From a virus (taxonomy: Duplodnaviria; Caudoviricetes): a DNA stretch of 64,000 bases. Below, in pieces: positions 2,714 to 59,555 of the stretch. A program made the position numbers and the translations under genes. The notes beneath the pieces were generated by a model. The model saw only the letters and a program-made list of their open reading frames with translations. It was not told the origin of the DNA and searched no databases. Position 1 is the stretch's first letter. Every line of letters begins with the position of its first letter. Where the stretch lies: IMG/VR virus record IMGVR_UViG_2920951204_000001, positions 1 through 64,000 of that record; one strand, 5' to 3'.

Positions 2714-3883
2714 ACCCATACACGGGAAACAGTTGCCCTCTTTATATTTCTTCATAATCTTCTCTGAAATATAATCAGGGTTCATTCTCTTTGCAGTACA
2801 CTTAGCTGCAAGTTTTGTTAAATACCAATAAGGGGAATTTTCATGGATATTATCTTCTTCTAAGACATAAAGAAGCTTTGGAAAAGCCTGTGTGACATAT
2901 ACGCCAACTTCATTTTTAAGACCAAGTAATCTCTGATTAAGAAACTCTTCAATAATCATTGCAAGTTCTTTCTTATACTCTGTAGTCTCCCCAAGATACA
3001 TGAATACACTCAAAAAAGGAGACTGCCCATTTGAGTTAGACATAGAATTGCACTGATAGTTAAATGTCTGAACGCCATCTGCTACTTCTTTTTTGGTATC
3101 AGCTTTTGCATATTTTTTACAATCTTCATCAGAAAATCCCCATGACTTATATTTCTCATAGTATTTGTTGTAACTATCTCTTACAAATGGTGCTAAATGT
3201 GTAAGAGTAATTGTAGCCCCTCCATACTGAAGTGACGTAACACCAAGAATAATCTGAGTGGCGATTGTACAAGCAGTAATAAATCTATGTGGTTTTTCAA
3301 TCATTACCTTGTTAATACAAGTACCATTCTGTAGCATATCTTCGAGATTAATAAGTGAGCAGTTACTCATCGCATTCATACCAAAATAATCAATATCATG
3401 GAAATGAATAATTCCTTCATCGTGCGCTTGTACAACTTCTGGTGGAAGTAAAAATCTACGAGAAATATCTTTGCTAACAATTCCTGCCATATAATCACGC
3501 TGAGTATTTAATACTTTTGAGTTTTTATTGGAGTTCTCAGTATTCCAATATTCACTTTCACCATCTAACAGTTCATCAATCTCGGAATCTGTTGTATTCT
3601 CATTTTCTCTCTGAAACTCACGAATACTTCTATATCCCTCATATGCTTTTGCAGTAAGTCTCTGCTTTTTGGTAATTAATTTATCATAAACCATTGATTC
3701 AATATCAGAGATGCTTACTTCTTCTTTATCCTTACACTCTTCTTCAATCTCATTTGCAATGTCATCCGCAATCTTTGGCTTTACAATGCCTGAACCATTC
3801 TTCATAGCTTTAAGAATTGCCGTTGAGATTTTTGATTTGTCAAAATCAACCTCTGAACAATCTCTCTTAATTACTTTTGTCAA
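2714..3883 (-). CDS. nrdD: Class III ribonucleotide reductase, exon 1 (with ATP-cone)
   Basis: VIKRD...FDKSKI ATP-cone, AHDEGIIHFHD, NCSL, QYGG, GQSPF, FPKL; ends at FPCMG. Confidence 0.95.
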
Positions 3884-25766: not shown

Positions 25767-27068
25767 TTAAATATTATTAGCCGTTTGTAATGGTATATTC
25801 ACGACTACTGGATGTGAACCTGCATCCACTATCCCATTGGCAAAAGCCTTTGGGAATACCTTCTTCATTATCTGATAACTTCCATTTACGTCTGCATTAA
25901 TATATTCTCCTTTCTCGCTCTGAAATAACCCTCTATGAATTCGTCTATCTTTATTGTAATTTTTCTCAATTGGCTCTTCACCATCAAGAAAAGATGTACC
26001 ACTTGTATAACTTTCATTTGTTCTAATGAACTTAATTCCTTCATTCTCGCATTTATATTCAAGTCTTTGTACAATACTTAAATATGGAATAGATACAAAT
26101 TTCTGATTGACTCTTTTACCCATATCAGTTTCTTGTTTCCATCCTGAGTTATAACCACAAACCAATGTGTCAATATCATTACACTTGCAAAAATCTACTA
26201 CCATCTTTGTTGATTTCTGAATATAGTCATCTACTTGATTATTTCTTTTAGTTGTAAATCTTTGCATCTCATTTGACCAATCGCTATCATTTCTCAGCTT
26301 TAATGCCGATCTTATTTCTGAAATCTTCTTATTATAATACTGATTGATTGACTTCAATGGTTTTCCATTTATTATAATTGGATTTACACCACAGTTTGTT
26401 GTGATGGTCATCAAATTATCGACACCTAAGTCAATTGCAGCAATACTCTTTGAATCTATATCCTTTGTTTCAGGAACTTCTATTTGGTAAACTACTTCCA
26501 TAATATATTCATTACCTTTTGGGACAAATCGAAGCTGTACTAATTTAGAATCATTTGGAATTTTTGTTCTGAAAATATTATTCATGATTTTAAGAGGTGT
26601 CCAACTAAAGTAAATATATCCATCAACAATTTTGAATTTGATATTATCTAATCCAAGTTCAAATCGCCCATCTTCTTTAGGAAGATACTTCGGTAACTTC
26701 GGTCTGCCAAGATATTTAGATGGATTCTTTGAATAGTCCTTAATAGCTGCGAAGAACGACTTCCAGTTCTTATCTAATTTTCTCAAAGTAGCTTGTCCTA
26801 CATTGCTTCCAATACATTTATAACAATCAGATTCTTTACATAATTGAAATAATTCATTGTATTGAATCCAACGAGCATCCTCAACTAATCCTTGTTCTTT
26901 TTGTTTTGAAGTTTCTATAAATTCCTGCCGAATTATGTAATTTCCATAATTATATAAGTTTTTAGATTTCCAACATAAATCATCTATAATTTTGAACAGT
27001 TTATCGTCTTTATTATTTTTCTTACTTTTCTTTATTCGATGTTGTTCTACTCTATTTACTTTCTTCAT
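25767..27068 (-). CDS. tnpB: TnpB-family RNA-guided nuclease, adjacent to CRISPR mini-array
   Basis: SKNLYN, AIDLGVDN (RuvC-I), NESYTS, NADVNG (RuvC-III); no Zn finger; no IS-end hairpins seen. Confidence 0.92.
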   Translation of the reverse strand: MKKVNRVEQHRIKKSKKNNKDDKLFKIIDDLCWKSKNLYNYGNYIIRQEFIETSKQKEQGLVEDARWIQYNELFQLCKESDCYKCIGSNVGQATLRKLDKNWKSFFAAIKDYSKNPSKYLGRPKLPKYLPKEDGRFELGLDNIKFKIVDGYIYFSWTPLKIMNNIFRTKIPNDSKLVQLRFVPKGNEYIMEVVYQIEVPETKDIDSKSIAAIDLGVDNLMTITTNCGVNPIIINGKPLKSINQYYNKKISEIRSALKLRNDSDWSNEMQRFTTKRNNQVDDYIQKSTKMVVDFCKCNDIDTLVCGYNSGWKQETDMGKRVNQKFVSIPYLSIVQRLEYKCENEGIKFIRTNESYTSGTSFLDGEEPIEKNYNKDRRIHRGLFQSEKGEYINADVNGSYQIMKKVFPKAFANGIVDAGSHPVVVNIPLQTANNI

Positions 27069-28486: not shown

Positions 28487-29383
28487 TTAATCACTCACTG
28501 CATCATAAATCTTTCCAACTTCATATTGATAATCTTCTACTTTTGTCCTTCTGTAATAATCACAATAACAGTGACCATCAGTATCTATTACATATTCAAT
28601 ACCTTTTGTCTTAATTGAGGTGTCTAAAACACCATGTAGGAAAAATACTCTCATTTTATCTTTTCTGCGAAGTCTACACCAATGAGAATCCGTTGTGTTT
28701 TCATAATCTATAACATCAAATTTATCAGTCTCACTCATAGACTCTGTTAAATAGTAATCAAACACATCAGAATCATTCCAGAAAACATCGCATCTAAATC
28801 TTACTGCAATAAACCCTACATCTTTCGCCCAATCAATAAAGAAGTCTCTCCACTTTATAAAGTTTGGAACTTTCTTAAATATGACTGCACAAGCGGATAC
28901 TGTAATTCTAATATCGTTAAGCTGCTGAACCATATCCTTATAATCAATTCCGTTGAAACAAAATCCAAGTATTTCTTCTCTTCTTAATGGTCGCCAATCG
29001 TGAATTGAAATATTTACATAATCAACAACATCTTCCATATACGGTATTACTTCCTTTAGATGAGTACCATTTGTTGTCATAGTTACTCTAAGAACCTTTG
29101 ATTTAATATTGAACTCTTTCAATTTGATAAACACTTTTGATAAATATTCAGGATCTAAAGTTGGTTCGCCACCAGTTATATCAACTGATATAGGATTTTT
29201 ATCACCTATTCTGGTTATAATATCATCAAGTGATTCAATGAAATTATCTAAAAACTGTTGTTTGTTACATGACATATCTTTGTCTTTATTGTAACAAAAC
29301 GGACATTTCGCATTACAACCACCTGGAATCACAAGTTTAACTGTTATCACCTTGTTATAATCTTTTCGTTCTATATATTTCAC
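28487..29383 (-). CDS. Radical SAM protein
   Basis: CNAKCPFC, TGGEP, TTNG. Confidence 0.9.
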   Translation of the reverse strand: MKYIERKDYNKVITVKLVIPGGCNAKCPFCYNKDKDMSCNKQQFLDNFIESLDDIITRIGDKNPISVDITGGEPTLDPEYLSKVFIKLKEFNIKSKVLRVTMTTNGTHLKEVIPYMEDVVDYVNISIHDWRPLRREEILGFCFNGIDYKDMVQQLNDIRITVSACAVIFKKVPNFIKWRDFFIDWAKDVGFIAVRFRCDVFWNDSDVFDYYLTESMSETDKFDVIDYENTTDSHWCRLRRKDKMRVFFLHGVLDTSIKTKGIEYVIDTDGHCYCDYYRRTKVEDYQYEVGKIYDAVSD

Positions 29384-30069: not shown

Positions 30070-30690
30070 TTATATGTTGTCTGTTTCTAACCACCTAACA
30101 ATTGGCTCAGATGTGCTACCTTTCTCCCACACGAACCACGCATGACACATTGTAGTTGCCCACTTCTTCCCAGTTTTTGGATCTTTCTCTAATCCACTAT
30201 TCCAAGTCGCCATTCTATTCCTAAACACATATATGTACTTAGGTGGATATTTTTCAAATAATTCTTTTCTTTTTACACCCTCAAGAAATTGAATTTTAAG
30301 AAACATTGCCATCTGACCATTATCTGTTAATAAATCCATTCCTTTTTCTACAAATTCTTTTGCAAGTGAATATGGTGGATTGGTTATGATGCCTTCATAT
30401 TTTTTATCTGTTTCATATGTAAGAAAATCAGCAACAATTGTGTTAGGATATCCTCTATCAACTAAATCAAGTCCTGTAATTTCTCTTTTATTCTTATAAA
30501 ATTCATTTATTGCATTGGCGATATGACCACCACCTACACACGGCTCTAATATTGTCTGTGCAAAAAAATCATATTTTGAAAGCAGCATTTTTACTGCTTC
30601 AGGATTTGTCGCATAGTAGTCATTTTCTACTCTTTCATTCTCTGGATTACCACCAGCTAATTTAGCACCTGCTAATACTTTTTTCTCCAT
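30070..30690 (-). CDS. DNA amino-methyltransferase (phage type)
   Basis: DYYAT, EPCVGGG (motif I), TNPPY (motif IV). Confidence 0.9.
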   Translation of the reverse strand: MEKKVLAGAKLAGGNPENERVENDYYATNPEAVKMLLSKYDFFAQTILEPCVGGGHIANAINEFYKNKREITGLDLVDRGYPNTIVADFLTYETDKKYEGIITNPPYSLAKEFVEKGMDLLTDNGQMAMFLKIQFLEGVKRKELFEKYPPKYIYVFRNRMATWNSGLEKDPKTGKKWATTMCHAWFVWEKGSTSEPIVRWLETDNI

Positions 30691-30823: not shown

Positions 30824-32253
30824 TTAAAACAAATCACATCCTGATTGTTTAAAACTTTCTACTTGTTTATTCCATTTTTCTTCATCCATGTTATACATTT
30901 TCATAAGACACTTCTTACAGTAAAATTTACTGATATCTCTTCCATGATATTTTAAATTCATACCAATAACATCCTTTGCTTTGATTCGCTTCAATTTACC
31001 AGATTGAGACTTGCATCCATTATCACAATATTTGTTAAAATACTGCGCAGCAATTTTCTCATCCAAATTACTATACTTGGCATACTCTTCAATAACCTCT
31101 TTTGTTGGTTCGTTTCTAAACACACCACCATTCCAAGCTTGATTGATATATTCATCTACTGTGCAATTCATAACTAACCATTTTGAATTACTTATAAAGT
31201 CTTCTCTTAAAATATTCTCCCAACGATTTCTCATTGTTGGATACCAATATTTATCAAGAATCCACGTTGATTTGGTGTAGTAGGGGCATGATACGGCACA
31301 GCCAACCCTTGAATATCCTTTTTTATACTTTGAATTTATTTTAATGCTTTTCCATATTGTATATAACCAGACATCCATTTCGTCCCATTTTCTTATTGGT
31401 AGTATTCCCTGCCAACATGTATTTCCCCATTCAGCTTCGTTTACCCATTCATCTTGATATCCGCTTCTAGTATTAGATTCTTCGTTTCGCATACCCATCC
31501 ACATTAAATATGGTTTGTTATGGTCTAAACGCCTAACCATTTCACCTACTTTGAAGATTCTACAACAACCACGAGAAATTCTATTAAATATAATATTTTG
31601 TTCTTTAATATATTGGTAAAATCCCTTCTCAGGATTCATAATCTCACAATTAGGAAAAGTCTTAACCATTCTGTATGTATCAGCACAGTCAAGCGATGTA
31701 TTATTAAATATTGCTTTTGTTTCTGGATATAATTTTCTGACTAGATGACAGGTAAGCATTGAATCCTTACCCATAGAAACAGGAATTATTGAAGTATATG
31801 TATTAAACTTCTCTGCTTTTTCTTTGATTAGTTCTAATGAATCAGCTTCAAGCTGCGTTAGATGTTCTTTCTGTAATTCGATTAAATCTTTCCAACTTGC
31901 TAAATCTACATCTGCTATATTGTCGTAGGATTTCAATTTGGTGCAATCCAATCTTTCATTGGAAATTTTGAACAAATAATAACATAAATGGTAGTTGCAA
32001 ATGCCATAAAATCAAAGAAAGGTAAGGATAATCCTAGGTAAAAGGTTATGTACATAACACTCAGGTATATGAGTGAACCCAATTTACAACGAGTATCTTA
32101 AATTCTTGCGAGATACAACCAAACAGCCATTTGAAGATCTGAAAGAAGGCTACTTTTGGCTTGATAAATCCATTATTAAAGGATTTGATAAGCAAGGAAA
32201 TGAACATAAATTCTATCGAGTGAAGATTGAAAATTCGCTTGAAAGATTGGATT
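30824..32253 (-). pseudogene. PAPS-reductase/DndC-like gene disrupted by an inversion of its 5' end
   Basis: SMGKDS PP-loop, CCRIFK, GMRNEES, RVGCAVSCP in 30824-31947; first 60 codons are on the + strand from 32073; 14-bp inverted repeat 31945-31958/32240-32253; re-inversion gives 433 aa. Confidence 0.88.
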
Positions 32254-32276
32254 CTTGTGTTTTTAACCTTTAATGT

Positions 32277-32483
32277 TTAAACAAAATGATTAATATCCAA
32301 TTTTTTTACTTTGTAAATTGCTTTTAAACGAAATAAATATGATGGATTCCTGCTCAGAAAATCTTTCACTTCGTCTTCTGTATTAAAATCATATTTTACA
32401 TTGTCCCAACTATCAGTATCAGCAGATTCTCCTAACCCATTATATTTATGTCCAATTACAATATAATTCCTATAATCATCCAT
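32277..32483 (-). CDS. Hypothetical protein
   Basis: SD GGAGG. Confidence 0.65.
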   Translation of the reverse strand: MDDYRNYIVIGHKYNGLGESADTDSWDNVKYDFNTEDEVKDFLSRNPSYLFRLKAIYKVKKLDINHFV

Positions 32484-51449: not shown

Positions 51450-52725
51450 GTGAACCGCAACCAAGCTAAAGACTTGCTTGCTTCCTAATCAATATCTCTA
51501 ATGAGACAAGTTTACTTAGGCTATCTCGACAGTTCCTGCCGTTCTCATTCTCAAACCTTCATTGAGAATATTTATTGCTGCATTTATATCTCTTTCATGA
51601 TGTATACCACAAATAGGGCAAGTCCATTCTCTTATAGATAATGCTTTTTTACCATCTTTGTGTCCACAATTAGAACATATCTGACTTGATGGATACCAAG
51701 TATCAATCTTAATAACTTCTCGACCATACCATTCAGCCTTATATTCCAACTGTCTTACAAATTCACTCCATGATACATCTGCTATTGATTTTGCTAATTT
51801 GTGATTACTCATCATATTTTTTACACGAAGATCTTCAAGTACAATCGTTTGATTTTCACGAATAATTCTTGTAGATAACTTATGTAAAAAATCTTTTCTC
51901 TGATTAGCAATCTTTTCATGTTGTTTTGCAACTTTTATTCTACATTTCTCTCTGTTGTTACTTCCCTTTTTACAACGAGATAAATCCTTTTGCAACTTTC
52001 TTAATTTCTTTTCAGACTTTCTAAGATATTTAGGATTTTCTATCATTTCTCCATCAGAAGTAATACAGAATTCTTTAATTCCAAGATCAATACCTATTTC
52101 ATTATTACTAATAGGTAATTTTCCCTTCTCGTCTTGATTTACTAAAACAGAAACATAATATTTACCTGAAGGATTTTGAGAAACTGTAACAGATTTAATC
52201 AACCCTTCAAAATCTCTATGTTTCTTAACTCTAACTAAGCCAATCTTAGGAAGTTTAATATACCTGTCAGATACATAAATATTTCCACCTTGATTATTAG
52301 TAGTATAAGAGTGGTTATGATTTTTCTTACTCTTGAATTTTGGAAATCCTGCCTCTGGTCTTTTGAAGAAATTGTTATATGCTGTTTGTAAATTCATCTG
52401 TGCATTCGCTAACGCAAGTGAATCTACTTCTTTCAACCACTCAAATTCTTTTTTATATTGAGCAGGTGTATTATTAAGTTTCTTTTTGGTTTCTTTATAA
52501 TATTCAATCTTATCTGAAAGCATACGATTATAGATGAATCGTACACATCCAAAGCATTTAGTAAAATATTCTTTTTGCTCTTTGTTAGGGTATAATCTAT
52601 ATTTATATGCTACTAATATCTATAATCACTTCCTTTCGTTTATACATTCTCTGTTATTATTCCTTTTATTTTTCGCATTCATCCACTAGGCTGAAGACCT
52701 AGTGGATTTCTGCTATAAACTTTTT
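51450..52725 (-). mobile_element. IS200/IS605-family tnpB-only element
   Basis: Left-end hairpin ATCCACTAGG-N7-CCTAGTGGAT 52681-52707; right-end hairpin 51457-51481 ending GGTTCAC at 51450; left boundary approximate. Confidence 0.82.
51516..52619 (-). CDS. tnpB: TnpB (IS605 type), ATA start
   Basis: Frame extends to [12 protein letters not shown]...FGCVRFIYN; GIDLG, LEDL, CSNC/CPIC, ERDINAA. Confidence 0.93.
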
Positions 52726-54207
52726 AAAGTCATTCTTCATATAGGCAAAATTAATCTTTTGACTAGGACTGAAATTTGATTTTCCATTCTGGTAATCCTT
52801 AATCCAATTCACAAATTCTTCGTCTTTGTTTTCTCTTACCGCAAATCCCATAAGTCCGATTAATGCATTTTTACAGTTTATGTAGACAGGACTATCTATC
52901 CTAACGCAATCGTCAACCATGTCAGAATATAACTCGACATCTTCTGAATCAATTTCTGACGATACAGTTTCTTTACAGAACTCCAAAACTTGTTTATTTG
53001 GGTCATTTTTTACGTCTAACGGTGCATTTTCGTCATCAGATTCCAAATTATTTCCTAATGAAACAGCAGTTTCATTGTCTTCTTCTAAACTATTATTCTC
53101 CATTTCTGTTTCCATTTTTTCAAAATGTAAATATTTCTTCATTAAACATGTAATATGATTAATTTTACATTCAAGCACTGATTTGTCTTTTGTGTGCTTA
53201 TTTACATCTAAATCATTCCATGTTGTTCCGTCGACTTCTATTTCTTTCATATTTGATACAAATTCATTTAAAAATTCACCAAATTTAGAATCTTCTAAAC
53301 CATATTTTGTAAACTTATCAAAAACAACCATCCAAACTGCCATATCTTTCGATACGAATAAGTCTGAAATTTCCTTGTTATCAATCTTGTCCGAATATGG
53401 AGCAATGCGTTTAAAGTATTCTTCAATCTTCTTAAATTCATCTATTGACGAATTGTTATTTAAAAAGTCACACATTTTTTTAGGATCTTTTTTCCATTCA
53501 TCTAAATAAAATACCGCCATAACAGACTCGCTAATAACTCTTTCCCAGATTCCTTTGTGCTTTTCGTTTTCTGTAAGTGCTGTTCCATCTTTAAGAAATA
53601 TACTTGAGTCTTTAATTCTCTTAATTTCATTTGCAAATTTTCCGATATATGTAAGGGCTTTCTGTGATGGATTCATAGCAACATGACTGTTCATTATACT
53701 TACCAATGAAGAAGTTTCTTCTGAAGTACAGTCTTGATATATAGTTGTCATCAATGGGCATTTGTTAAATTGTCTTTTTAATTCATCAGGAAGATCATCA
53801 TATGTTTTCTTTCTTAGATCAAATTCAACAGTTTCCCAAACTATATCTCCATTTTCATCACGAATAATTTTCCCGTTTTCATCAACTTTCTTCTTATTAT
53901 AAGTAACGAATGGATTACGAATAAGAGTTGTGATTTTATATCCGCTATATTTAAATCTTCTAAGTGCTTCTGTTCTGTGTCCACCATCGACAACATATGT
54001 AATTGTTATTCCTGATTTATCTTCTTCTGCGAGAATTAAATTAGGAATACATATTTTTTGCGAGACTGCACTGTAAATTAAATTATTGACGCTTTCATTT
54101 GTCCAGCAGAAATCTCTTTGAACTGCCTGATCTGTTTTAATGGTTTCATTCTGTGCATCATCGATATACTGTCCTATCGTTGTTGGTTCTGTTCTAAATC
54201 CGTTCAT
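52699..54207 (-). CDS. DUF262 (ParB-like/GmrS) domain protein
   Basis: VQRDFCW, IPNLIL, VVDGGHR. Confidence 0.75.
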   Translation of the reverse strand: MNGFRTEPTTIGQYIDDAQNETIKTDQAVQRDFCWTNESVNNLIYSAVSQKICIPNLILAEEDKSGITITYVVDGGHRTEALRRFKYSGYKITTLIRNPFVTYNKKKVDENGKIIRDENGDIVWETVEFDLRKKTYDDLPDELKRQFNKCPLMTTIYQDCTSEETSSLVSIMNSHVAMNPSQKALTYIGKFANEIKRIKDSSIFLKDGTALTENEKHKGIWERVISESVMAVFYLDEWKKDPKKMCDFLNNNSSIDEFKKIEEYFKRIAPYSDKIDNKEISDLFVSKDMAVWMVVFDKFTKYGLEDSKFGEFLNEFVSNMKEIEVDGTTWNDLDVNKHTKDKSVLECKINHITCLMKKYLHFEKMETEMENNSLEEDNETAVSLGNNLESDDENAPLDVKNDPNKQVLEFCKETVSSEIDSEDVELYSDMVDDCVRIDSPVYINCKNALIGLMGFAVRENKDEEFVNWIKDYQNGKSNFSPSQKINFAYMKNDFKKFIAEIH

Positions 54208-56071: not shown

Positions 56072-56437
56072 TTATTCCTCCAAATCTCCAAAATTAGCAT
56101 AGTATACTCTTTTTATATTTCTTTTATCTTCTATTGAAGATATGTACCCTAATTTCTTAATTATTCTCTCTTCTGAAACTTGTCTTAAACATTCTCCAAG
56201 TACCATACTATTAACTTTCAAGCCTTTTTCTACATCTTTTTCGAAAAGAAGATGTGTCGGTTGATCTAAGTGTTTAATTTTAGATGTTAATGGTGCTACT
56301 AATGTCGTTCCACTAAAATAATTTCCAATATCGTTTTGCAAAATAATTGCTGGTCGTTTTCCACCTTGCTCTCCGGCGAATTGTACTTTTCCAAAATCAA
56401 CAAGCACTATATCGAATCTTTTATAATTGCCTTTCAT
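56072..56437 (-). CDS. PemK/MazF-family protein
   Basis: DIVLVDF...EQGGKRPAIILQND.GN...VAPLTS. Confidence 0.9.
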   Translation of the reverse strand: MKGNYKRFDIVLVDFGKVQFAGEQGGKRPAIILQNDIGNYFSGTTLVAPLTSKIKHLDQPTHLLFEKDVEKGLKVNSMVLGECLRQVSEERIIKKLGYISSIEDKRNIKRVYYANFGDLEE

Positions 56438-56804: not shown

Positions 56805-57545
56805 CTACCCATATATAAATGATGTTCTTTTTTTGTTTGCTCTAATTCTTTCGTCTTCCAGACAAGCATATCTTTCAGTTATTCTTAAATCCGAATGAGC
56901 AAACATTGTCGATATATCTACAAGGGCTTGTGCTTTATCATCCGAATTTTTAATGTACTGATTAGCCATTGTTTTTCTAAGTCCATGTGTTCCAATTTTC
57001 TGTGGAATACCAGCTTCCTTCCTTGTTTTTTCCATTATTTCATACCAACTTTTTTCACCTATTTTAGAGCCTTTCTGACTTGTAAAAATATAATCATTTA
57101 GTTCCTGTGGTTTAACCATTCTATTACACCATTTCAACCAATCAACGAGTGCTTGAACAGAATCATCATTCCAATATAATTCTATATGTTTATGAGTTCT
57201 TTTTGTTTTTTCTGGAACATACTCTACTTTATTTTTAAAATTCCAATTTATATCAAAAATGTCAGACCATTTAAGGTTACAAAAATCTCCACCACGCAGC
57301 CCAATATCAATAGCGAATACAAACATTGTTAAATTTCTTCTTGCTATTGTCTCCTTTTTTATTGATGTTGCACTCTCCACCTTATTTTTAAATATATTAT
57401 ACACTCGCATTATTTCTTCACGATCTTTTAAACACCACATTTTTGTTGATCTTCCTATATTATCAACTTTTTTAACCCTGTTTATCGGAAATTGTACAAC
57501 CTTTGATTCTATATTTCCCATTTTATTAAAATCTACTGCCAACAC
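56805..57545 (-). CDS. Small tyrosine recombinase
   Basis: GLRGGD (R), EKT (K), HGLR, AHS (H), TERY (Y) all present; 246 aa. Confidence 0.92.
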   Translation of the reverse strand: MLAVDFNKMGNIESKVVQFPINRVKKVDNIGRSTKMWCLKDREEIMRVYNIFKNKVESATSIKKETIARRNLTMFVFAIDIGLRGGDFCNLKWSDIFDINWNFKNKVEYVPEKTKRTHKHIELYWNDDSVQALVDWLKWCNRMVKPQELNDYIFTSQKGSKIGEKSWYEIMEKTRKEAGIPQKIGTHGLRKTMANQYIKNSDDKAQALVDISTMFAHSDLRITERYACLEDERIRANKKRTSFIYG

Positions 57546-58340: not shown

Positions 58341-59555
58341 TTACGCTCTCAGCATAGCCAAGTTAATAATTGTTGGGTGTGAACCTGCACCCTCTATTCC
58401 TTTGCTAAACGCATCAGGAATTACCTTCTTTAATATTTGATATGCTCCATTTACATCTGCATTTATCTTCTTTCCGCAATCTGCAATGAATAATCCTCTA
58501 TGAACTCTGCGTTCCTTATTATAATTCTCTTTTACAGGATCTTCATTATCAAGAAATGATGTTCCAGAAGTACATGCTTCCTCATTTTCTATAAATCTAA
58601 TTCCATTATTCTCACATTTATATGCAAGCATCTGGATAAATAGTTCATAAGGAATATAAGTAAAATTCTGCATACCTTGTTTCTTTTGTTTCCATTCATC
58701 GTTGTGTCCTACAATCAATGTGTCAATTTCATATAAGACACACCAATCAACTACATACTTACTTATACAATGCATCTGATATTTAATCATTTCATATCGC
58801 TTGTCTGTAAGTTTCTGTAACTTGTTCGACCAATCTTTTCCGTTGACTTTCTTCAACTCTGACTGAATATTTGCTTTCTGTTTATTGTAAAACCGATTAA
58901 TTGACTTAATAACTCCACCTTTAACAGCTATTGGATTTTCACCAATGTTGTTTACCATAGTTATGAAATTATCAACTCCAATATCAATGGCAGCTACTCT
59001 TTCAGAAGTTTCTGAAATGTCTGGCACTTCGATTTCATAGACGATTTCCATTACATACTTTTTACATCTAGGAATGAATCTGCATTGTAATATTCTTTCT
59101 TGTGCATTTGTCTTAAACATATTGTTGTATGGTTTAAATGGCTTCCATGCAAAATATACATATCCATCTTTCAATTTCACTTTGTTGCTATCAAGAGATA
59201 GTAAGAATCTTCCGTCTTTATCTTTATATTTTGGAATCTTTGGTCTACCTAAATATTTACTAGGATTTTTCTTCCAATCCTTAATTGCCTTGAAAAATGC
59301 TTTCCAATTTTTATCAAGTATCCTTAAAGTTCCTTGACCTGTATTATTTCCAATATCTTTGTATGGCTCTGACTCTTTTACAAGTTGAAATAATTGATTA
59401 TATTTAATCCAGTTTCCATTATTTATAAATTCTTGACGAATAATATAATTCGCATAGTTGTATAAATTCTTTGACTTGAAACACATTTCATCAACAAATT
59501 TATAAAAATCAGTTCCATACTTTATATTATGCTGTTCACATCTTGTTATTTTCGT
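58341..59555 (-). CDS. tnpB: TnpB-family nuclease, same clade as 25767-27068; non-ATG start
   Basis: Frame extends to ACG-KITRCEQHNIK after AAGGAG; AIDIGVDN, EEACTS, NADVNG. Confidence 0.9.
   Translation of the reverse strand, partial: TKITRCEQHNIKYGTDFYKFVDEMCFKSKNLYNYANYIIRQEFINNGNWIKYNQLFQLVKESEPYKDIGNNTGQGTLRILDKNWKAFFKAIKDWKKNPSKYLGRPKIPKYKDKDGRFLLSLDSNKVKLKDGYVYFAWKPFKPYNNMFKTNAQERILQCRFIPRCKKYVMEIVYEIEVPDISETSERVAAIDIGVDNFITMVNNIGENPIAVKGGVIKSINRFYNKQKANIQSELKKVNGKDWSNKLQKLTDKRYEMIKYQMHCISKYVVDWCVLYEIDTLIVGHNDEWKQKKQGMQNFTYIPYELFIQMLAYKCENNGIRFIENEEACTSGTSFLDNEDPVKENYNKERRVHRGLFIADCGKKINADVNGAYQILKKVIPDAFSKGIEGAGSHPTIINLAMLRA

Follow-up and report, generated by a model that had tools for sequence, protein, structure and literature searches.

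A gene of the PAPS-reductase family is found in two pieces on opposite strands of a phage genome, and the question raised by this locus is whether the 5' end of the gene was turned around by accident or belongs to a switch that can be turned back. The earlier note on this DNA left both possibilities open. The window, i.e., the whole stretch of 64,000 nucleotides that was analysed, is a one-strand phage-like region with 31% G+C in which the minus strand carries nearly all of the long ORFs, and it forms part of a prophage on contig C3 within a 2.9-Mb genome. The evidence presented below makes it likely that the locus is a programmed reversible inversion, more specifically a gene-altering, "partial intergenic" inverton carried by a temperate phage of gut Lachnospiraceae.

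The invertible segment and its repeats

Two ORFs share the same four residues at this locus: (i) a minus-strand ORF of 383 aa (30824-31975; MFKISNERLD-CTKLK...); and (ii) a plus-strand ORF (32073-32273; MNPIY...ENSLERLD) in which six unrelated codons follow ERLD up to its end at 32273, and for which no family match was obtained. Both translations do show the ERLD junction that was originally pointed out, and the perfect 14-bp inverted repeat described at the two borders (31945-31958 and 32240-32253) reads as claimed; the segment between its arms measures 281 bp. The following features can be differentiated:

30070-30690, minus strand: DNA methyltransferase gene, directly downstream of the PAPS-reductase-family gene
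30824-31948, minus strand: codons 60-433 and stop (374 codons; PP-loop/PAPS_reduct core and Cys-rich C-terminus), intact
31945-31958: in-gene repeat arm, AATCCAATCTTTCA on the plus strand and TGAAAGATTGGATT (codons L-E-R-L-D) on the gene strand; it now adjoins the 3' part of the gene, with the crossover inside the arm
31959-32239: invertible segment of 281 bp, in OFF orientation in the window
31959-32072, plus strand: conserved gene leader, inside the segment, near-invariant across 14 loci
32073-32252, plus strand: codons 1-60, with a GTG start, encoding a small N-terminal alpha/beta domain
32240-32253: distal, intergenic repeat arm, TGAAAGATTGGATT on the plus strand, exact reverse complement of 31945-31958
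32277-32483, minus strand: variable ORF of 68 aa on the upstream side of the distal site, missing or replaced in relatives
56805-57545, minus strand: 246-aa tyrosine recombinase, the sole recombinase in the window and a weak invertase candidate

The segment contains the leader and codons 1-57 of the PAPS-reductase-family gene. When 31959-32239 is inverted in silico, the intact 433-aa ORF that the earlier note had anticipated is obtained, and its product is 96% identical to full-length homologues of the same length (P0006 and P0013). The same operation regenerates a distal site that fits the consensus of intergenic sites (GAAA-N6-TTTC-N4-GGAAATTTT), again as had been proposed; in its present form, the distal arm reads GAAT-CCAATC-TTTC on the gene strand, one mismatch away from GAAA-N6-TTTC. 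Apart from these two arms, the 64-kb window has no exact match to the 14-mer, and of the three occurrences of the 11-bp core TGAAAGATTGG in the 2.9-Mb genome, two are at this locus. With imperfect positions beyond the 14 perfect ones included, the repeat is 24 nt long, at 83%.

Within the leader, the stretch 31995-32072 includes a 12-bp palindrome (TTATGTACATAA) that is both perfect and invariant; the GTG start is flanked by a CTCA...TGAG pair. Beside the repeat lies an A/T homopolymer whose length differs between loci. A sigma-70 scan of the segment for a promoter gave no more matches than in shuffled sequences, and none in the leader.

Both orientations among related phages

A search with the 383-aa ORF yielded 995 relatives, which belong to two classes: (i) full-length proteins of ~430 aa that start with MNPI(Y/F) and run uninterrupted through ...SLERLDCTKLK; and (ii) short proteins of 366-410 aa which begin either with hydrophobic residues translated from non-coding DNA or at an internal codon immediately past the junction. 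Homologues had been expected to be continuous proteins of ~430 aa if the gene had been split by inversion, and so they are, with the N-terminal 60 residues conserved across the whole family.

At the DNA level, a set of 43 loci (41 from IMG/VR and two from genomes) was compared together with the window. The segment is inverted (OFF) in 11 of these 44 loci, namely L013-L016, L022, L024, L038, L042 and L055 (Lactonifactor sp. BIOML-A5), L048 and the window itself, and it is in frame (ON) in the remainder. In the OFF loci, the N-terminal 60 aa are encoded on the opposite strand, ~125 bp upstream of the junction; once reverse-complemented, the segment is colinear with that of the ON loci, and the flanks exchange exactly at the repeat. 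Single lineages contain ON/OFF pairs (L054/L038, L046/L048 and L021/L022), and in a distant clade (~70% identity) short proteins (P0094 and P0066) likewise have the N-terminal domain inverted upstream. As a separate observation, similarity to the gene ends after residue 223 in L046 and L048 (from position 3670), where the C-terminal third differs or has been replaced.

A tree of 117 homologue cores, built with the junction excluded, requires at least 15 changes between ON and OFF, at least eight of which are forced by well-supported branches; the number rises to 17-18 when the distant clade is added. Identical cores are sometimes found in both states. The closest comparison is that between L056 (OFF; Logan, SRR10692671) and L061 (ON; ENA, ERZ28656378), which come from different samples and are 100.000% identical over flanks of 5786 and 3859 bp, with the 310-bp piece between the flanks perfectly inverted. 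The existence of relatives in both orientations indicates a real, reversible switch, which is OFF in the window. Hence, of the two possibilities initially left open, accident or reversible switch, the second is favoured by the repeated changes in the tree, by the L056/L061 pair and by the intact halves of the OFF copies (see below).

Both junction types were also detected in three pig-gut metagenome runs, among assembled contigs only, which suggests heterogeneity within samples, though mixed strains are also possible. In these runs, unitigs break exactly at 31958 and 32253, and one of them (X3) contains a junction-only unitig of 46 nt, the length expected for k = 31 with both flanks in common. 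Only the ON joint is seen in a fourth run (X7), which is registered to one named organism and not as a metagenome. No match was found among deposited phage genomes, nor, with the query used, among 300 species-representative genomes of the host's family. Each locus has one N-terminal copy and no second cassette, which is not the arrangement of a shufflon or of a domain-swapping system.

Sites, spacers and candidate recombinases

The dispersed site to which the repeat is related had been defined in the earlier note by its core, GATTGG. This definition had to be replaced: the 47 GATTGG matches have no common flanks, and the 14-mer with up to three mismatches gives 31 matches versus 26 expected, so the core-defined reading was dropped; it is the arms that define the family. 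Perfect copies of GAAA-N6-TTTC number 15 in the window versus 3.4 expected, a figure reached by none of 100 shuffles. They are mostly intergenic, at gene junctions, and conform to the extended consensus GAAA-N6-TTTC-N4-GGAAATTTT; their density in the prophage (C3, 40-180 kb) is 3-4 times that of the rest of the genome. The palindromes span positions 4209-63970 of the window (e.g., 9306, 12238, 27919, 43111, 45478 and 60550); their spacers are unique, the downstream GGAAATTTT element is common to them, and most are located 15-30 nt ahead of the ribosome-binding site of the next gene.

The distal arm of the switch is a member of this family, and the in-gene arm mimics it, N4-GAATTTT extension included. 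Since the extended consensus is mimicked on the opposite strand, the repeat shows its imperfect extension to 24 nt. No other site-based inverted repeat of at least 12 bp was found in the window besides this pair.

The two arms co-vary. Along the gene strand, the main lineage has TAAA/GAAT-CCAATC-TTTC at its distal site; the other versions are AAAA-CAACGC-TTTC in L035, GAAA-GTAACG-TTTC in L038/L054, GAAA-CGAAAC-TTTC in L042/L055, GAAA-ACTTAG-TTTT in L066 and AAAA-ACTTAA-TTTC in L064. Each of the six versions is matched within the gene, invariably at codons 56-61, by an inverted partner with an identical 6-bp spacer and inner arm; the coding pseudo-site, whose conservation had been raised as a question, is thus conserved and changes together with the distal site in six lineages. 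The spacers of the two arms are mismatched in L020 and L049, which have other distal spacers, and in L025 and L028, with one in-gene change each, and all four are ON; so are the 13 loci that lack the distal site. Overall, OFF is found in 11 of the 23 arm-matched loci and in none of the 17 with a mismatched or missing partner (Fisher p = 8e-4, with relatives that are not independent). The suggestion that core identity permits crossover fits these data, as all 11 inverted loci have identical spacers and the 17 without a matching partner site are all ON.

Could the repeat be a hot spot that needs no recombinase, where template switching or short-homology recombination recurs without any program and OFF copies are loss-of-function mutants of a dispensable accessory gene? 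We regard this explanation as improbable. It would agree with the small size of the repeats (only 10-15 bp), with the fact that no dedicated invertase was found, with the dispensability of the gene in a region that varies in many phage lineages, and with the nonsense codon 13 of the ON-locked L049. Nevertheless, six different spacers are arm-identical at one codon position, and the in-gene arm copies even the N4-GAATTTT extension, neither of which is in keeping with unprogrammed rearrangement. The same can be said of the at least 15 switches in the tree, where lineages with the repeat are ON or OFF in roughly equal measure, and of an inversion that is exact, with zero other change over 9.6 kb. 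Furthermore, neither the N-fragment (60 aa) nor the C-part (370-382 aa, as far as the locus permits) is disrupted in any of the 11 OFF loci, which argues against a dead-end mutation.

A programmed inversion would operate through recombination between two short inverted sites: (i) the intergenic GAAA-N6-TTTC site, ~115-130 nt upstream of the start codon; and (ii) its in-gene mimic, in codons 50-61. The recombining sites would have in common the 6-bp spacer and the inner arm, with an identity of 10-15 bp in all. In the ON state, the leader and codons 1-57 would be in frame with the rest of the gene and a 433-aa PAPS-reductase-like Fe-S/PP-loop enzyme would be produced; in the OFF state, that of the window, the leader and the N-terminal domain would face away, leaving the catalytic part without a ribosome-binding site.

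In a tyrosine-recombinase core-type site, inverted binding arms surround an overlap of 6-8 bp that is identical in both partners. The architecture of the present sites (arms of 4-6 bp and a 6-bp spacer), as well as the spacer-identity pattern, appears to fit such a site. Inverted arms, a 6-bp spacer and the need for identical spacers are the architecture that this type of enzyme would use; the inversion is, on balance, somewhat more probably than otherwise catalysed by a site-specific tyrosine recombinase that requires spacer identity.

As for candidates, each of the 30 related phage records has 1-5 tyrosine recombinases, and three of the 30 have a serine recombinase. The 246-aa enzyme of the window was set aside: only 4 of 32 related records contain a close homologue, two of these records are devoid of the repeat, and most relatives with the switch lack such a homologue. 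Two more tyrosine recombinases of the prophage, of 351 and 466 aa, are encoded on the same contig. Other recombinase classes are present in phages both with and without the repeat, and none of them tracks the switch. A serine invertase of the Hin/Gin/Cin type was discarded as well, since PF00239 has no match on contig C3 and 27 of the 30 related phages lack a serine recombinase. The vicinity of the small tyrosine recombinase also contains two minus-strand genes, one for a MazF/PemK-family toxin (56072-56437) and one that is GmrSD_N/NsnA-like (52699-54207). The prophage also encodes two TnpB-like proteins (25767-27068 and 58341-59486, minus strand) with OrfB_IS605 and Cas12f1-like TNB domains; no TnpA was found among their scanned neighbours.

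A broader and more speculative proposal concerns the site family as a whole. The GAAA-N6-TTTC sites (~27 in the window) might be phage tyrosine-recombinase sites "addressed" by their 6-bp spacers and used for cassette or module exchange, the switch being an exaptation of them; we consider this doubtful. Homology between phages stops exactly at the distal site (e.g., the joint 32256>32514 in X3). Moreover, a 2.8-kb module comprising the PAPS-reductase gene, the methyltransferase gene and a 129-aa gene (L061:5869-8690 vs L057-L060) is 99.6-99.9% identical amid unrelated flanks and begins exactly at the distal site in the four comparisons made. Separately, the homology of this module usually stops near another GAAA-N6-TTTC site. 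Mosaic breakpoints are not significantly associated with the sites: 9 of 12 junctions with a site are broken versus 10 of 18 without (p = 0.44). If the exchange-site reading were true, the gene would have come to include in its reading frame a copy of the site upstream of it, toggled by the same enzyme, and the inverton would be the first direct sign that recombination takes place at sites of this family.

The switched enzyme, its OFF state and related systems

The minus-strand ORF 30824-31975 matches PF01507 (PAPS_reduct) with E 2.9e-25 and 89.7 bits, versus a Pfam cut-off of 22.5, and belongs to phrog_424. Its core has the PAPS-reductase/PP-loop fold, with APS/PAPS reductases and CysD as the best structural matches (Foldseek probability 1.00). 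A structure search with the full model returned generic cores only (PAPS/APS-reductase, CysD, FAD-synthase and TtuA), none of which points to a substrate. Invariant cysteines are present, a CC pair and CxxxC/CxxC motifs among them. According to the AlphaFold model, residues 1-65 constitute a separate small alpha/beta domain, with a pLDDT of 83-92 over residues 1-50, and the junction sits in the last strand of this domain; the N-terminal fragment folded alone had a pLDDT of 59.6, too poor for a structure search.

Regarding its function, the protein scores below the cut-off of every NCBIfam model, and assimilatory CysH was rejected (61.5 bits versus a cut-off of 154 for NF002537, and 24.7 versus 254 for TIGR02057). 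The PADLOC BrxP model matches with E 2.6e-28 over the core only (94-360 of 779), and no DUF4007 domain was seen in the protein. BrxP-type proteins have recently been tied to DNA phosphorothioation, and DndC/SspD/BrxP systems are recognised by a PAPS-reductase-domain protein together with a P-loop NTPase (DndD/SspC/BrxC) in one locus (PMC12914056). A phosphorothioation locus of this kind was discarded here, as no DndD/SspC/BrxC-type partner was seen in the flanks. From this weak family resemblance and the adjacent methyltransferase gene, we infer that the enzyme may modify phage or host DNA in a BrxP/DndC-like manner.

The gene next after the PAPS-reductase gene is always a DNA methyltransferase, the family of which differs between phages; the neighbours in the flanks are methyltransferases and small proteins with no known function. 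In a distant relative, a weaker second PAPS_reduct-like gene encoding 334 aa (L064:2757-3761) occupies the place of the methyltransferase. At 1.5 kb past the methyltransferase, the window has a gene for a 298-aa radical-SAM protein (28487-29383, minus strand) with weak viperin, MoaA and QueE-like matches; a radical-SAM gene is also found ~3.4 kb downstream of the PAPS-reductase gene in L059 and L062.

With respect to the OFF state, no Shine-Dalgarno sequence precedes the upstream in-frame starts of the C-part in the 11 OFF loci, and the frames upstream of the C-part differ between loci through homopolymer indels. Without a Shine-Dalgarno sequence at these starts, the OFF state most likely makes no enzyme: to judge from the reading frames, no full-length enzyme would be produced and probably none at all. 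The OFF N-fragments end in unrelated tails, with a total length of 66-133 aa (66-78 aa in 6 of 11), and their orientation opposes all neighbouring genes. One ON locus, L049, whose distal spacer is mismatched and which is apparently locked, carries a nonsense codon at position 13 (L049:2860-2862); this is consistent with gene silencing being sometimes favoured, and the stop could be an alternative silencing route for a locked switch.

The N-terminal 65 residues are modelled as a separate domain, and the OFF N-fragment retains leader and start codon and ends soon past the repeat in most loci; on these grounds, the OFF state might instead make two products, a free N-terminal domain of 60-70 aa and an enzyme shortened at its N-terminus, the activity or targeting of which would be changed. 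The dissimilar tails and variable length of the N-fragments are hard to reconcile with such a two-product switch, as are the shifting frames upstream of the C-part, devoid of a Shine-Dalgarno sequence, and an N-fragment that opposes the neighbouring genes in a segment where no promoter was detected, all of which makes it quite unlikely. An assembly or amplification chimera, in favour of which only the general risk at repeats can be mentioned, has a negligible probability, given that the 14-bp repeat is shorter than assembler k-mers and that the same junctions appear in independent assemblies (IMG/VR, ENA, Logan and NCBI), including Lactonifactor sp. BIOML-A5 (OFF) and a 335,856-bp contig of GCA_027680745.1 (ON).

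The preferred reading, a programmed ON/OFF inversion, places the locus in an established class, that of gene-altering programmed inversions or partial intergenic invertons (Milman et al., 2023, PMC9881135; Chanin et al., PMC10028968). As in other members, one arm lies in coding sequence and one outside, the protein is changed, and both orientations exist in nature. The targets described in those two papers are specificity genes (hsdS, Type II R-M, tail fibres, PilV and SusC) that swap alternative domains, and PAPS-reductase genes are mentioned in neither of them. Here, by contrast, inversion simply detaches the N-terminus and leader, with no alternative cassette to take their place; the element is phage-borne and its repeats have only 10-15 bp. 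The invertible segments of phages Mu (Gin) and P1 (Cin), mentioned in PMC9881135, are also phage-encoded programmed inversions that alter a phage gene product. They differ in having an adjacent serine invertase, 26-bp sites and an enhancer, and in swapping tail-fibre C-termini, whereas the target here is an enzyme.

Two bacterial systems offer further parallels. The fimS element of E. coli is an invertible promoter element of ~300 bp with 9-bp inverted repeats, turned by the small tyrosine recombinases FimB and FimE in phase variation. The present element resembles it in its size (~300 bp), very short repeats and ON/OFF behaviour; yet fimS comprises a promoter only and has adjoining recombinase genes, while the present segment holds a leader and 57 codons and has no adjacent recombinase gene. 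In the RecV-type switches of Clostridioides difficile (cwpV, flagellar), a single distant tyrosine recombinase flips several unlinked switches; in consequence, an adjacent invertase gene is not required. These switches share with the present one a Clostridia-class host, but they are located in 5' untranslated regions and have longer repeats, and no RecV-like enzyme is tied to the element described here.

A precedent for phase-variable DNA modification is given by the hsdS "epigenetic invertons" (PMC7672463). If the enzyme modifies DNA, the present switch would likewise be a phase-variable modification; compared with BrxP and DndC, its match covers the PAPS-reductase core only, without DUF4007 or a BrxC/DndD/SspC partner.

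The switch is real, recurrent and conserved; it belongs to a known inverton class and has a new target and a link to a dispersed site family. Phage-borne invertons have so far been found mainly to vary tail fibres, while the one described here acts on an enzyme gene of the BrxP/DndC-like PAPS-reductase class, turning it on and off, and the switch, with its co-varying sites, is conserved across a family of gut Lachnospiraceae phages of roughly 100-200 kb. The six co-varying 6-bp spacers represent a natural mutational series that makes it directly testable whether the spacer-identity rule holds and which recombinase acts, and they also provide a handle on the role of the dispersed GAAA-N6-TTTC sites. 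If the enzyme modifies DNA, the switch would be a means for a temperate phage to bet-hedge over that modification, which would bear on the evasion of both restriction and modification-dependent defence.
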